Below, piece by piece: positions 79-5,444 of a stretch of 15,209 bases of DNA. Source of the DNA: Thermodesulfobacteriota bacterium. Lineage in GTDB: Bacteria; Desulfobacterota; Desulfobulbia; Desulfobulbales; SURF-16. Location of the stretch: NCBI GenBank assembly GCA_039715015.1, contig JBDLIE010000061.1:1-15209 (forward strand). Direction: 5' to 3'. The position numbers and the translations under genes were made by a program. The notes under the pieces are model-generated. The model was given only the letters and a program-made list of their open reading frames with translations, was not told the DNA's origin and made no database searches. Position 1 is the stretch's first letter; every line of letters begins with the position of its first letter.

Positions 79-114
79 TCCGTGATGAACCTTTTTTTTT
101 GGGTTCATCACGGA
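79..114. repeat. Perfect 13-bp inverted repeat downstream of the selenoprotein gene (possible terminator/stabiliser or small palindromic element)
   Basis: tccgtgatgaacc (79-91), loop T9G, then ggttcatcacgga (102-114). Imperfect outer arms are ccttccac (66-73) and gtgggaagg (120-128). Confidence 0.7.
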
Positions 115-174: not shown

Positions 175-1719
175 TTAGTGAATTTTTCCCTTCTTTACCT
201 GAAAGTCAAAATTGTCATCACGATCAGGTGCGTGGCAGTTCGTGCATAGACGTGGGTTTGGAATTTTGGAAGGGCTGTTTTGCTTGGGGTTTTCAGCATG
301 CATTTGGCCGGGCCCATGGCAGACCTCACAGCCAACCTCCAGCAGTCTGGTGGGTAAAGATGTGGCAAGATAAGCGGTTGTTTCGTCAAGACCAGTGACA
401 TGGCAATATACGCAGGTGAGATTGTTGTTTTGGTCGCGTTCCTGGAGTGTCTGATACGATGAGGCGTGAGGAGTTTTAGCCCAGGCTGTGTAGAGTTGCT
501 CATGGCAGCTCCGGCATTGCTGGCTGCCCAGGTATTGATCAAGTTTTTTCGTTTCAGCTGTCTGTCTGCGGACCTGATTTGCCTTTTTGCGTGATTCCTG
601 CAGCAGTTTAATCATGACCGCATCATCCGGGACTGAGGGGGGGAGGGGATGGAAATGGTTGCTGTGGGATGCCTTGGGAACAGAGTTTTTCTTCTCTTCG
701 GCGGTTATTTTTTTAAGTTCAACTTCCAGTTCCTGGTATCTCTTTAATTTCTTGGCAAAGTCTTTTTGCCTGGTTTCATTGTCCTTATAAACTTCTTTGG
801 GACCACCCTTTTTTTGTACCCTGTTTATCAACCACCCCAAACGATCATATTCTTTACGTAAGGCCAAAATGGGATGTTCTCCCTGTTGCCATTTTTTGGA
901 GGAAGTCCAGTTGACAGTGAGTTGCCCTTGGTATTTGCCGTCATGGCCAGACTGGCTAATGAGCGTGTTGTTGATCTGTTGAGGTCGAAGGTTTTGCTTG
1001 CTAACTCCAGACTGGAAGATGAGATGCACGTCGGAATGCTGTCTTGAAATCTCTTTGTTGTCAGCAGCGCTTAAGTTGGAAAGAAGGATAACAAGATCGC
1101 TTTTACCTGCGGCTCTTTTTAATAAGTCCGGTAACACGTCTTGCCACGCCAATATTTTCAGAGCATCAACGCCACTATCCGGGAGTTTTGCTTGACCGGT
1201 TAAACCAATCAAGGCAATGCGCATTCCTGCCCGCTTAAGATGGACAATCTCTTTGAAGAGGAGAGCGCCCTCCATATCAACAATGTTGGCGCTGAGGAAA
1301 GGAAAGGATGCCTCATGGGCCAATGTTTGTAGGGCCTGTGGCCCTGCTGCCAAGTCTTGTCTGCCAATGGCAACTGCATCATATTCCATATGATTATATG
1401 CCTGAACCAGGGCTGAAGCCGTGATGAGAGACTGTTGGATGCGCTGGGGTTGGCGGTAAAGTTTGTCGTCAAAAAAGAGGGTGCCTGCATCAATCTTCAG
1501 GTCGTTTTCTGGTGTGGCCAGGCTTTGGAGCAGTGATGATTTCTTGGACAGACCGCCCAATTGACCAGATTTTCAGCCACATGGCTCTGTCTGGCCACCA
1601 ATATCATTAGAGTAGAAAATGTTTAAGGGAGCGAAGCTAAAACAGGATAGAGGACTAAGAAGAAGGGTGGCAACGCAGATAAAAAAAGAAAAGAGAGCTG
1701 TGGTTTTGTTGGTCTTCAT
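175..1719 (-). CDS. Putative exported selenoprotein (Sec49 in C-G-U motif): UshA/5'-nucleotidase-like metallophosphoesterase-fold domain fused to a C-terminal tetraheme cytochrome c (c554-like), 514 aa
   Basis: Extending ORF 175..1560 upstream in frame gives MKTNKTTALFSFFICVATLLLSPLSCFSFAPLNIFYSNDIGGQTEPCG*KSGQLGGLSKK, with one TGA (1573-1575). The ATG at 1719 overlaps the rarA stop (TAATG). The extension supplies a signal peptide and the first phosphoesterase strand (IFYSND). Downstream motifs include DAG, YDAVAIG, FPFLSAN and IALIGLT. Four CxxCH motifs: CRSCH 502-516, CVYCH 400-414, CEVCH 316-330, CTNCH 232-246. Confidence 0.88.
1544..1575 (-). promoter_or_regulatory. Bacterial SECIS element (UGA plus downstream hairpin)
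   Basis: The mRNA reads UGA AAAUCUGGUCAA UUGGGC-GGUCU-GUCCAA. The stem has 6 bp (1544-1560, one G-U) and a GGUCU loop. GGUCUG lies 19-24 nt after the UGA, the same sequence and register as my recollection of the E. coli fdhF SECIS. Confidence 0.8.
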
Positions 1720-3068
1720 TAGTTGTTTTCCTTCTTTTTACGGCTGGCGAGGATGGTCCGCCATTTATCCAGCCGGTCTTTAATTATCTTCTCAAGGCCC
1801 CTGTCGGTAGGGTTGTAATAACTCTGGCCAGATAGTTTCTCTGGCAAATGGTCTTGCTCTACAAGGGCCAAAGGGTCATCGTGGGCATACTGATAGCCTT
1901 TTCCATAGCCGAGATCTTTCATGAGTTTGGTTGGCGCATTACGGATGTGGTGTGGGACTGGTAAACTGCCAGTTTTGGCGATGTCTTGCCGTACCTTCTT
2001 GTATGCCATGTAGACGGCATTACTTTTTGGCGCTGTGGCAAGGTATAATACGGCCTGGGCAAGGGCAAGTTCTCCTTCGGGTGAGCCCAGCATTTGATAG
2101 CTGTCCCGGGCCATGATGGCCACCTGCAAGGCAGTGGGGTCGGCATTGCCGATATCCTCAGTGGCAAAGCGGATCATTCTGCGTGCGGCGTAAAGGGGCT
2201 CTTCTCCGGCCTCAAGCATTCTACACAGCCAATAGAGGGCTCCGTCAGGATCACTGTCACGCAGGCTCTTATGGAGGGCCGAGATTTGATTGTAATGCTC
2301 CTCGCCATTTTTGTCATACTGTAAACTTTTTCTGCTAAAGCATTCAGCGACAATTTCCCGGGTGACCGTTTGGGGGCCACAATCACTATCATTGACTAGG
2401 GACGAGGCAATTTCAAGACTGTTTAAAAGGCGCCGGGCATCACCATCTGCCAGGGAGACAAGAGAAATAAGGGCATCTTCTGAAAAGGAGATGTTGCCCC
2501 TTTCCAGGCCATGGATGGGATGGGTTAAGGCACGCTTTGCAATTGCTAAAAGGTCGTCGTCAGTAAGGGCATTTAAGGTGAGAACACGGCACCGGGACAA
2601 AAGAGGGGCCACCACCTGGAAAGAGGGATTTTCAGTTGTGGCCCCGATTAAGGTTATCAGACCATTTTCGACATAGGGCAGGAAGCCGTCTTGTTGACTT
2701 TTGTTGAAACGGTGAATCTCATCAACAAAAAGAATGGTGGATTTTGATTGCCGTCTAAACTCTTCGGCCTGGCTGATGATCTTGCGGATTTCTTTGACGC
2801 CGGTAAGCACGGCAGAAAAGAAGATAAATTCAGAACTGGAGTTGCGGGCGAGCAGGCGGGCAAGGGTTGTCTTGCCGGTCCCTGGGGGTCCCCAGAGGAT
2901 AAGAGAGGGCATTTTTTGGGCGGCAAGAATGCGCTCTAAAAATTTGCCGGTGCCAAGAAGATGGTGCTGGCCAATAAATTCATTAAGGCTTTGCGGCCGT
3001 AATCTCTCAGCCAAAGGGCGAGTGTCGCTGAAGAGGCTTGCCGGTCCTGTCGTGATTGGTTGCGACAT
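1719..3068 (-). CDS. rarA: Replication-associated recombination protein A (AAA+ ATPase, MgsA/RarA)
   Basis: PLAERLRP, Walker A GPPGTGKTT, Walker B LFVDEIHRFNKSQQD, GATTENPSF, ISALHKSLR, EDIGNADP and HIRNAPTKLMK motifs. Confidence 0.97.
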   Translation of the reverse strand: MSQPITTGPASLFSDTRPLAERLRPQSLNEFIGQHHLLGTGKFLERILAAQKMPSLILWGPPGTGKTTLARLLARNSSSEFIFFSAVLTGVKEIRKIISQAEEFRRQSKSTILFVDEIHRFNKSQQDGFLPYVENGLITLIGATTENPSFQVVAPLLSRCRVLTLNALTDDDLLAIAKRALTHPIHGLERGNISFSEDALISLVSLADGDARRLLNSLEIASSLVNDSDCGPQTVTREIVAECFSRKSLQYDKNGEEHYNQISALHKSLRDSDPDGALYWLCRMLEAGEEPLYAARRMIRFATEDIGNADPTALQVAIMARDSYQMLGSPEGELALAQAVLYLATAPKSNAVYMAYKKVRQDIAKTGSLPVPHHIRNAPTKLMKDLGYGKGYQYAHDDPLALVEQDHLPEKLSGQSYYNPTDRGLEKIIKDRLDKWRTILASRKKKENN

Positions 3069-3072
3069 GTCC

Positions 3073-3861
3073 TTAAGAGGGTTCGATGATATGCTCAGCC
3101 AGACGTTCGGCAGTAAAGACCAGGGATTCGATGTCGAGAAAAGTAAGCACGTTTTTTGTAAACAGAATTTTCACCTTTGCATCAAATCCGTCCTCAGGTT
3201 CTTCATCCCAGAAGAAAAGCTGTTGGGGAATTTTAGGCAAAACAGCCATTGTTAAAGCTGCTGAGGCTGTGGTGCCATGCAGTGGTTTACCCCCCCAAGG
3301 CTCACAGAGATAGAAAATCTCATTTTGCGATCGACCTTGAAAAAAAGTGGCCAGTTTATCCTCGCAATAGGTGGCAAGGGTTCTGACCTTGGAAATACTG
3401 TTTGGTAAACTTTCCAAGCCTATCCATTCATCTGAAGGGAGATCAGCGCCGTGGAAATGGATATAGTTATAAAGGAGGATTTGGTCCCGGGGATCTTCAG
3501 GTGGATTGTTGTTGATGAGCAATTGGTCCTTGCTCACCGTTACTTCTTGACCCAGGTAATAAAAACAGAGCCGACCGTTTGTAAAGGTGGCACCTAAGGT
3601 TTGAGCCATGTTCTCGAAATCGAGAGGGGCGAGCTTGCCTTTAAGGTGCCTGATAAGCTCTAGATCACGCTCCTGAGCAAGCTGATCAAGGGCTAAGCTG
3701 TGGCCCGTGTCAAGTTTAAGGCCGCTGAGGTCAATATAGGGGCATTTCCTCGGGTCTTCACCACTTTTGGCAACATGAGCAGCAAATGCAAGGCAGGCAG
3801 GGTGGCCACACTCTCCACAATTGTTTTTAGGAACTCTCTTGAGAATCTCGTGGGGGTCCAT
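3073..3861 (-). CDS. N-terminal FeS-domain (CxxCx4C...CP) protein with a DUF3786-like C-terminal domain
   Basis: NNCGECGHPACLAFAA...CPY resembles the RnfB/AcsC-type N-terminal 4Fe-4S motif. QILLYNY, LPKIP..FFWD and LDIES resemble DUF3786. Confidence 0.8.
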   Translation of the reverse strand: MDPHEILKRVPKNNCGECGHPACLAFAAHVAKSGEDPRKCPYIDLSGLKLDTGHSLALDQLAQERDLELIRHLKGKLAPLDFENMAQTLGATFTNGRLCFYYLGQEVTVSKDQLLINNNPPEDPRDQILLYNYIHFHGADLPSDEWIGLESLPNSISKVRTLATYCEDKLATFFQGRSQNEIFYLCEPWGGKPLHGTTASAALTMAVLPKIPQQLFFWDEEPEDGFDAKVKILFTKNVLTFLDIESLVFTAERLAEHIIEPS

Positions 3862-4823: not shown

Positions 4824-5444
4824 TTAAGTTTTTAACCTGCTTCCTCTAAAAAGGATTGAAAATCCATCTATATATTCTCTGTTAAGGGCAAGGAAAGGAA
4901 AAAATTTAGTCCCTTTATTTTTGGTTGAGCCAGGAGCTCCATCAAGACGTTTTATAAGTACGTTGGTCATGGGGATAAATGGATGTTTGGCAAGACAGGC
5001 ATTGAAATTATAGACATGGCAATTGATATGGTAGGCCGGGGTGCCGGATGACTTTGTTATAATATCTACGCCGTCAGGGGTAAGTCGATGGTGATCTGGG
5101 TGGTTACTGTGTTTGTTGGTGCCCATCCGCTGGTATTCGTCATGGGCAAAGATGACACCTTGCAAATCAAGAAAGAAATTCTTGTAATGAAGGATCTGTT
5201 TGTCCGCAATGATGATCTCAGCATTGCGGATTTCCCGAAAGCCAGCGTAGGTTGGCATATAATTGTCAACGAGCTGCTTTTTGGGAGGATTGTTGAGCCA
5301 GGAAATTGTTCTTCTTTCCCGGCATTCTTCTTGAGAAAGGGAGAAACGGATAGCTTTTGTGGGCATTTGTAGCACAACTACCCAGCTTTCATTCTCCTTG
5401 CCACCATCAGGGGCAAGCTGTTTTGTTTGCGAAATGTTCTCCAT
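4824..5444 (-). CDS. Hypothetical protein, possibly two tandem DUF6812-like beta domains
   Basis: 206-aa ORF co-oriented with its neighbours. It contains FIPMTNV...FLALNREYI in the second half and a similar FREIRNA...FFLDLQGVI pattern in the first. Confidence 0.6.
   Translation of the reverse strand: MENISQTKQLAPDGGKENESWVVVLQMPTKAIRFSLSQEECRERRTISWLNNPPKKQLVDNYMPTYAGFREIRNAEIIIADKQILHYKNFFLDLQGVIFAHDEYQRMGTNKHSNHPDHHRLTPDGVDIITKSSGTPAYHINCHVYNFNACLAKHPFIPMTNVLIKRLDGAPGSTKNKGTKFFPFLALNREYIDGFSILFRGSRLKT

Follow-up and report, generated by a model that had tools for sequence, protein, structure and literature searches.

What protein does a bacterial gene make when its reading frame is broken, 49 codons in, by a TGA, and what would that protein do? 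The question is raised by a gene at one end of contig JBDLIE010000061.1 (assembly GCA_039715015.1, a member of the Desulfobulbales). The window, that is, the whole stretch of DNA analyzed, is 15,209 nucleotides long. In it, the gene encodes a UshA-like protein with four C-terminal heme-binding motifs and, if the TGA is read as selenocysteine (Sec), an N-proximal Cys-Gly-Sec (CGU) motif. The locus is a genuine selenoprotein gene, an added member of the named, functionally uncharacterized family NF041198. New here are the loss of the dimetal site, a set of three distal ligands for four hemes, a model in which the matching CGC loop of a natural Cys homologue docks near heme 2, and orthologues without hemes. 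Coordinates are collected in Table 1.

Selenocysteine at Codon 49

The gene is a single frame of 514 codons on the minus strand, from an ATG at 1719 to position 175, and its sole interruption is the TGA at 1575-1573, within the sequence EPCGUKSGQLGG. The start ATG overlaps the stop codon of rarA as TAATG (1721-1717). A first-pass annotation, made from the DNA letters, had described the coupled start, the continuous frame, the TGA in its context and the four CxxCH motifs, and the description is accurate.

We assign selenocysteine to codon 49 with high confidence, on comparative grounds. The TGA lies within PCGU in all 30 loci initially fetched from relatives. In a wider set of 131 cleanly parsed, non-duplicate orthologous loci, the position is TGA in 124 and a Cys codon in 7; before counting, we dropped six duplicates, L095 (no anchor), L097 (partial), L099-L105 (paralogues) and L111 (broken). 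Among 11 full-length database homologues, 10 have CGC and one has CGS. The in-frame UGA aligns with the Cys of homologues, and the homology extends to both sides. Four genomes hold a Cys-type tetraheme copy in addition to a TGA copy (G021:C125, G158:C62, G133:C201 and G155:C18).

A hairpin resembling a Sec insertion sequence (SECIS) element follows the TGA. Its folding energy alone is unremarkable against shuffled sequences (z −0.57 to −0.80), and Rfam has no match anywhere in the window. The stem barely varies among loci, and the support for a SECIS element is constraint at synonymous sites, not covariation. That is, the offset from the TGA is 21 nt in 124 of 124 TGA loci, at least five of the six pairs are retained in 123, and synonymous sites are near-fixed, Gly55 being GGC in 123 and Leu57 being CTG in 122. 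The hairpin has decayed to four or fewer pairs in three of the seven Cys loci. A genome-wide scan for SECIS motifs found the UshA-like gene and missed selD and ExtKL, and is not a survey of the selenoproteome.

The genome, 99.99% complete, carries selA, selB, selD (itself with a TGA) and tRNA-Sec, so that all of the genes to be expected, selA, selB, selC and selD, are present. One DNA sequencing run contains the stretch with the TGA intact and one other letter different; this run may be the source of the DNA. No RNA run is listed among those containing the stretch. The read-through proposed by the first-pass annotation is borne out by the codon counts and the constrained hairpin. The residue-49 alignment has UGA or Cys, with the single CGS noted above, and none of the findings that would have told against read-through (a genome lacking sel genes, non-Cys homologues, a read error at the TGA) was made.

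Residues 9-21 of the read-through product are strongly hydrophobic (Kyte-Doolittle 13-mer 2.7), consistent with the export that had been predicted. The 461-residue open reading frame (ORF) found with translation table 11, from TTG 1560, begins 3′ of the TGA and has no hydrophobic stretch (Kyte-Doolittle 0.21); it could not, therefore, yield an exported cytochrome of the c type. The N-terminal CG[C/S] motif is missing from 109 of 120 database homologues, which indicates that gene callers truncate the protein, as had been anticipated.

A Nucleotidase Fold Without Its Dimetal Site

The AlphaFold2 model of the whole chain has a predicted local distance difference test score (pLDDT) of 91 and a predicted template modelling score of 0.85. 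The structure matches of the N-domain are to 3IVD (Z 32.6), UshA (1USH, Z 32.2) and SoxB (2WDC, Z 31.3), with root-mean-square deviations (rmsd) to 5′-nucleotidases and SoxB of 2.3-2.5 Å over ~272 residues; the UshA-like scaffold of the first-pass annotation is thereby recovered. The metal motifs were judged against those in aligned nucleotidases (DxH, GD, GNH, H and GHxH). Only the first Asp, D39, is left: DxH has become DIG, GD has become GT, GNH has become GRQ, and both later His motifs are gone. Other residues stand in for the lost ligands (the His after D39, the bridging Asp, GNH and the later His motifs) both in this protein and in most family members (131 loci). Judged by these motifs, the N-domain is a pseudo-phosphoesterase without a dimetal site. 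Its scores against the UshA and SoxB family models are far under the cut-offs (40 against 600 and 31 against 550).

The C47-G48-U49 motif begins eight residues past D39, and the model would place it on a loop above the former metal site. No thioredoxin-like fold is found among the structure matches of the protein. The linker helix, residues 367-386, presumably occupies the position of the inter-domain hinge helix of UshA, which leads to the UshA substrate-binding domain. A distant relative, P0259, is 1207 residues long and combines two UshA-like domains, in which the metal histidines are partly kept, with a CEC motif and, at its end, a tetraheme.

Three Distal Ligands for Four Hemes

The four CxxCH motifs, at residues 402, 436, 464 and 492, all lie within the last 115 residues. 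The domain matches PF13435, and the genome has cytochrome c maturation genes. As the first-pass annotation had suggested, the domain is c554-like: it superposes on cytochrome c554 (1BVB) with Z 10.8 and an rmsd of 2.4 Å over 116 residues, the superposition ending with model residue 125 (H514) opposite c554 residue 179. Against hemes 1-4 of OcwA (6I5B), Z is 7.7. For the heme domain, Foldseek had no match at E ≤ 0.001, and the rows returned did not include MccSep. Hemes 1-3 are collinear with those of c554 and weakly so with those of the genome's own ExtKL/MccSep (E 2e-4).

Each of the 134 aligned rows carries four CxxCH motifs, and in each the C-terminal tail contains His or Cys; H418 and H474 are invariant, and conservation extends to no other His, Cys or Met. 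We take H418, H474 and the C-terminal ligand to serve hemes 4, 1 and 3, by collinearity with c554 and on the pattern of its structure. Since there are three conserved distal ligands for four hemes, heme 2 is left over. Its distal site is probably open, to judge from the ligand count and the superposition. Heme 2 serves as the active site in c554, OcwA and MccA, according to the accessible part of 10.1101/641308.

At the last distal-ligand position (window 178-180 and its orthologues), 46 of 89 tetraheme loci have only Cys, 30 have only His, 12 have both and 1 has neither. The variation suggests a natural swap, apparent in the alignments, between His/His and His/Cys ligation of one heme. Elsewhere, the genome holds 34 frames with at least three CxxCH motifs, among them adjacent 26-heme and 16-heme ORFs at G000:C42:3081-6401.

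Predicted Docking of the CGU Loop near Heme 2

Does the CGU loop meet heme 2? A complex was modelled from the two halves of P0023, a natural Cys homologue 36% identical to the window protein, together with four hemes. Its score was 0.70, against 0.04 for the best control; among the calibration pairs, 116 of 157 solved ones and 2 of 215 mismatched ones attained a mark of 0.70, counts that hold only roughly here. The runs share at least 94% of contacts, and the partner pLDDT is at least 91. The P0023 interface includes P41-C42-G43-C44, Q48, the loop 431-439, whose end is marked by the first Cys of the heme-2 motif, and the stretch that follows heme 4. The contact C44-H503, equivalent to U49-R500 in the window protein, has an expected error of 1.6 Å. 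The CGC loop is predicted to dock on segments around heme 2; ligation of the iron is not scored in such a model.

Conservation was compared between tetraheme and heme-less forms across 48 N-domain columns that are conserved in the former. The columns with the greatest and the third-greatest loss in the heme-less forms are Q53 (1.00 to 0.26) and P46 (0.99 to 0.56), both of which are residues of the predicted interface; D77 and K262, at the old active site, rank next. The heme-less forms were not in the alignment used for the complex model, and the losses at Q53 and P46, as far as alignments can tell, agree with the docked interface as an independent check. Conserved Lys262 and His/Arg500 are near the site.

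Relation to Known Proteins

The protein matches NCBIfam NF041198 over residues 30-507 (positions 22-519 of a 519-position model) with 502.4 bits, the cut-off being 275, and has the PCGU/PCGC motif of the family as EPCGU at residues 45-49. Since the match spans the tetraheme tail, the curated model already includes the hemes. The fusion, which the first-pass annotation thought possibly undescribed, is therefore not so: NF041198 spans both domains, and homologues are named after it. NCBI calls several of them 'UshA-like (seleno)protein', and the Joint Genome Institute (JGI) names some 2′,3′-cyclic-nucleotide phosphodiesterase. NF041198, UshA_like_PCGU, is the UshA-like CxU family (COG0737) in Zhang and Gladyshev 2008 (PMC2398784, as far as its text was available), of which the window locus is an ordinary member with no difference in kind. 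The score for NF049981, UshA-like (seleno)protein family 2, which has CxxU, is 41.3 bits against a cut-off of 140, and the window motif is CxU. The CxU row for the UshA-like family recurs in PMC2398784, PMC9312934 and PMC13188914 as a table row, with no hemes, mechanism or function in the portions of text seen. A literature search, which excluded supplements, gave no paper describing the fusion or the function of an UshA-like/NF041198 protein, and a term search of the text available for 10.1101/2025.05.29.656830 and PMC13326102 gave no mention of UshA or nucleotidase.

Another close parallel is MccSep/ExtKL (NF040886), the polysulfide reductase of Geobacter sulfurreducens, likewise a periplasmic multiheme selenoprotein with a c554-type module and collinear hemes 1-3. 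According to the accessible portion of PMC13510729, heme 2 of MccSep is His/Cys-ligated with Sec alongside, and the enzyme reduces polysulfide and also selenite. Delivery of Sec to heme 2 from a second domain is shown in MccSep (same portion of PMC13510729), whereas it is only predicted for the window protein. MccSep has five hemes and a C-terminal Sec (DGU) on an Ig-like domain, with the ligating Cys 86 residues away; in contrast, the window protein has four hemes and carries C and U together (C47-G-U49) on an N-terminal nucleotidase fold. It scores 22.3 bits against the NF040886 cut-off of 250.

Cytochrome c554 of Nitrosomonas europaea (1BVB) and OcwA (6I5B) share with the window protein the fold, the heme order and a heme 2 without a conserved distal His; unlike them, the window heme domain is much smaller (125 residues), is fused to a Sec domain and has a last ligand that varies between Cys and His. 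With the Escherichia coli 5′-nucleotidase UshA and the thiosulfohydrolase SoxB, the likeness lies in the N-terminal metallophosphoesterase fold and the linker helix, whereas the dimetal ligands and the catalytic His are lost and the C-terminal substrate-binding domain is replaced by a cytochrome. The window protein is neither a member of MccSep nor an active UshA.

A Proposed Mechanism

We tentatively favor, as plausible without calling it probable, a periplasmic S-S/Se-S oxidoreductase that is recharged through heme 2 and is convergent with the polysulfide reductase MccSep. The proposal is as follows. SelB would read the hairpin and insert Sec49. The dead 5′-nucleotidase fold would present Cys47-Gly-Sec49 on a loop past the first former metal motif, and the linker helix, as modelled, would hold the tetraheme domain over this loop. 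Hemes 1, 3 and 4 would be six-coordinate through H418, H474 and the C-terminal His/Cys, and heme 2 would be open and facing the CGU loop. By analogy with MccSep, Sec49 may attack the substrate, with Cys47 resolving the adduct and perhaps ligating the heme-2 iron, and the heme chain may reset the site against the quinone pool via separate cytochromes. The likeliest substrates would be polysulfides or persulfides, which is the weakest step of the proposal. Of 20 loci picked by hand from other classes of the phylum, 8 (five families) adjoin a gene for a 16-heme NrfH-type cytochrome and/or a 9-heme cytochrome b fusion, and these flanking genes tie the family to the quinone pool in those classes. 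The matches in 142 of 151 genomes of the class, and the dsrA gene of the host, also count in favor of the proposal.

In a bolder form, which we put forward as speculative and doubtful, the protein would be a second, independently evolved Sec-Cys-heme center: a hinge would swing the CGU loop to the axial position that is vacant on heme 2, Cys47 would ligate the iron and Sec49 would attack polysulfide. Almost all Desulfobulbia would then have it as a core periplasmic sulfur enzyme, systematically mis-called, and it might account for an unassigned step in S0 reduction, in disproportionation or in the oxidation of sulfide, with tuning by the His/Cys swap at the last ligand.

Evidence Weighed against the Oxidoreductase Reading

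Several observations weigh against the favored heme-2 oxidoreductase. Some concern the models. The complex model scores protein contacts, not heme contacts, and gives no Fe distance; most of the top-ranked P0023 contacts fall in the linker helix; the docked halves derive from one chain of a stand-in protein; and confidence within the N-domain model is lowest at the CGU loop (pLDDT blocks of 78 and 69).

Others concern context. The neighbors in the class are housekeeping genes, not sulfur genes (rarA in 27 of 41 loci and a Mn-pyrophosphatase in 25 of 41), and no clear homologue of the cytochromes that flank distant members is found in this genome. The genome also has its own MccSep/ExtKL selenoprotein (G000:C34:5247-6428, L154), with five hemes and DGU. 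MccSep shows no association with the heme domain, being present in 24 of 40 heme-less and 25 of 40 tetraheme genomes, a comparison that covered 80 of 93 intended genomes. The family is widely distributed. Matches are found in 142 of 151 genomes of the class (120 above the cut-off) and in 131 of 251 of the phylum (54 above it), the weaker of which may include true nucleotidases; at E ≤ 1e-30, a search of representatives counted 3438 proteins. With a Cys homologue as the query, a feature search found look-alike clusters in Planctomycetota, Acidobacteriota, Myxococcota, Bdellovibrionota and Nitrospinota, and one Atlas look-alike cluster is auto-named c554/calcineurin-like phosphoesterase. That look-alikes are commonest in the first four of these phyla argues against a narrow role in sulfur respiration.

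The remaining objection is the existence of orthologues without hemes. In 43 orthologous loci, drawn from the fetched set by match type and not at random, the protein ends just past the linker helix, and 42 of these keep the TGA and the hairpin. By the match table, about 41 of the 142 matching class genomes carry this kind. No c554-like tetraheme match is found elsewhere in 37 of 42 heme-less genomes, and two of the five matches in the others are broken heme remnants beside the gene. Since Sec is kept without a replacement tetraheme in the 37, selection maintains the Sec site in the absence of these hemes. As read from these sequences, Sec stays constant, the hemes being an optional module. 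Heme-less rows are scattered in a quick tree, used only for scatter (its careful search was incomplete, many forks are weak and 5 of 40 neighborhood loci are absent), and share genera with tetraheme forms (g33, g41). The scatter, the shared genera and the broken remnants point to repeated heme loss.

The first-pass annotation had the Sec wired to the hemes. The tetraheme is indeed present; the hemes are probably more than an electron wire, because heme 2 lacks a conserved distal ligand, and they are not obligatory, as the 43 heme-less loci attest.

The idea of a split gene, a heme-less form with a separate adjacent cytochrome, is rejected on the same 37 of 42 genomes, on the two broken remnants and on 20 heme-less loci, which have no adjacent cytochrome gene within ~5 kb. 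A tie between Cys47 and the hemes was also considered. Cys47 is exact in 91 of 91 tetraheme loci against 35 of 43 heme-less ones (five shifted, three lost), with Fisher p values, for kin that are not independent, of 7e-5 (shifted and lost) and 0.03 (lost only). The 91 include three loci added by hand, L011 (CGU), L132 (CGC, P0028) and L109 (inferred from a 1-TGA match), which are not in the hairpin, N-domain-column and conservation-loss counts. The Cys47 drop ranks 16th of 48 columns, which fits general relaxation and counts against the favored reading as well; given kinship and this unremarkable rank, the tie is kept only as a weak signal.

Further variants of the family were seen. In one family of another class, heme-less CAU and tetraheme CGU members stand in tandem (L156:7097-9564, L157, L158 and L159) between 9-heme/cytochrome b and 16-heme NrfH-type genes, possibly forming a heterodimer; L160 has two divergent copies. 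L101-L104 form a further heme-less paralogue family with CGG instead of CGU. MccSep/ExtKL and the UshA-like gene are no more than ~8 kb apart in 7 of 24 heme-less MccSep genomes against 0 of 25 tetraheme ones (L039, L042 and genomes G071, G140, G145, G153 and G076); genes intervene, and one or two ancestral events are the probable origin.

Alternative Explanations

The alternative that survives best, an unlikely one that nevertheless deserves real weight, is a housekeeping periplasmic thiol catalyst (a disulfide oxidase, isomerase or reductase, or a repair enzyme for peroxide or sulfenic acid damage), whose CGU would work on cysteines in other proteins and for which the hemes would be an optional electron sink or source, replaceable by DsbB/DsbD-type partners. 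It explains the heme-less forms and the wide spread better than the heme-2 oxidoreductase does: Sec is kept in 42 of 43 heme-less loci, with no substitute tetraheme in 37 of 42 genomes; the gene is near-universal in the class, with housekeeping synteny; and look-alikes occur across many phyla. There are also chemical precedents, in that CGC is the active site of disulfide-forming MauE (10.64898/2026.03.05.709764) and CXC peptides can substitute for protein disulfide isomerase in yeast (10.64898/2026.01.27.701630), both as given in the portions of these sources available. However, in the model the CGU loop is buried against the heme domain, and other proteins would have limited access to it as long as the hinge stays closed. 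Most members, distant relatives among them, are of the tetraheme form (four CxxCH motifs in 132 of 144 new representatives), a DsbB-family gene is already in the genome, and the protein lacks a thioredoxin-like fold.

We consider improbable a role in detoxification or in metal or metalloid handling, in which CGU would bind soft metals or Se, Te or As oxyanions and heme 2 would reduce these, or nitric oxide (NO) or hydroxylamine, as in c554 and OcwA. The selenite reduction by MccSep (PMC13510729, accessible part), the reported reduction of NO by c554 (PMC4377587, accessible part), the reactions of OcwA with nitrite and hydroxylamine (10.1101/641308, accessible part) and the conserved Lys262 and His/Arg500 near the site are all in keeping with it. 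Yet no metal-resistance, efflux or regulator genes recur among the neighbors of 61 loci, and retention in 142 of 151 genomes is unlike the patchy occurrence of resistance genes.

A UshA/SoxB-like hydrolase of nucleotides or thiosulfonates, with Sec and hemes as regulatory or accessory parts, is very improbable, being largely refuted by the sequence. The fold is about equally near UshA and SoxB (Z 32.2 and 31.3), some distant homologues keep metal-motif histidines (P0259) and some members bear the JGI phosphodiesterase name, but only the first Asp of the metal motifs is left, here and across the family, the substrate-binding C-domain of UshA is replaced by the cytochrome, and the UshA and SoxB scores are far below their cut-offs. 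Finally, that the TGA is a true stop or an error, the product being the 461-residue ORF or a pseudogene, has next to no chance of being correct: the hairpin is not significantly stable alone, but the TGA recurs in 124 loci with Cys codons at the same site elsewhere, the synonymous hairpin codons are fixed, the sel machinery is complete, and the 461-residue ORF lacks an export signal.

Layout of the Locus

Table 1. Features of the UshA-like gene and its surroundings, with positions in the window.
Feature	Position	Strand	Basis or remark
Whole coding sequence, 514 residues, UshA-like (seleno)protein with tetraheme domain (NF041198)	175..1719	(-)	
Probable Sec-pathway (secretory) signal peptide, residues 1-~29; cleavage site inferred	1633..1719	(-)	Hydropathy; similar N-termini in homologues
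Cys47-Gly48-Sec49; TGA 1575-1573	1573..1581	(-)	
SECIS-like hairpin, 6-pair stem and 5-nt loop	1544..1560	(-)	Starts 21 nt after first base of TGA; overlaps codons 54-59
5′-Nucleotidase/SoxB-type metallophosphoesterase domain, dimetal ligands degenerate	565..1632	(-)	Structure matches and motif alignment
Inserted long helical hairpin, residues ~283-345; in many relatives short or missing	685..873	(-)	Predicted secondary structure; split hidden Markov model matches
Linker helix, residues 367-386; main predicted contact to heme domain	562..621	(-)	Heme-less orthologues end just past it
c554-like tetraheme domain	178..552	(-)	CxxCH at 516-502, 414-400, 330-316 and 246-232
Heme-2 motif CVYCH; no conserved distal His/Met	400..414	(-)	Equivalent of active-site heme of c554, OcwA and MccSep
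Distal-ligand candidates	468-466 (H418), 300-298 (H474), 180-178 (H514)	(-)	
rarA/mgsA AAA+ ATPase; stop overlaps start codon of UshA-like gene	1719..3068	(-)	Syntenic in 27/41 loci, window included
Iron-sulfur (FeS) and DUF3786 protein, upstream of rarA	3073..3861	(-)	8/41 class loci
Perfect 12-bp inverted repeat with A/T-rich loop, downstream of UshA-like gene; possible terminator or repetitive extragenic palindromic-like element	80..113	(.)	

An FeS and DUF3786 gene is also found near the UshA-like gene in a distant family (L156:3148-3966). The arm of the inverted repeat has 19 copies in the genome, only one of them as this hairpin, and a scan for promoters and terminators gave counts at or below chance. 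A 206-residue ORF at 4824-5444 has no family match beyond a weak one to DUF6812. A pattern search of the genome contigs for related loci gave 73 matches, none of which was confirmed, and relatives were taken from a genome search instead.

Significance

Of 151 genomes in a sulfur-cycling class, 142 contain a match to the family, which most annotations miss because its signal peptide and active site precede the UGA. To our knowledge, the S0 and sulfide pathways of these organisms are still partly unassigned. The analysis names residues that can be tested, namely C47, U49, heme 2, H/R500, K262 and the C-terminal His/Cys, with the Cys-type and heme-less forms as natural controls. If the MccSep-like reading is true, the protein would be a convergent selenium-heme catalyst in the Desulfobulbia.

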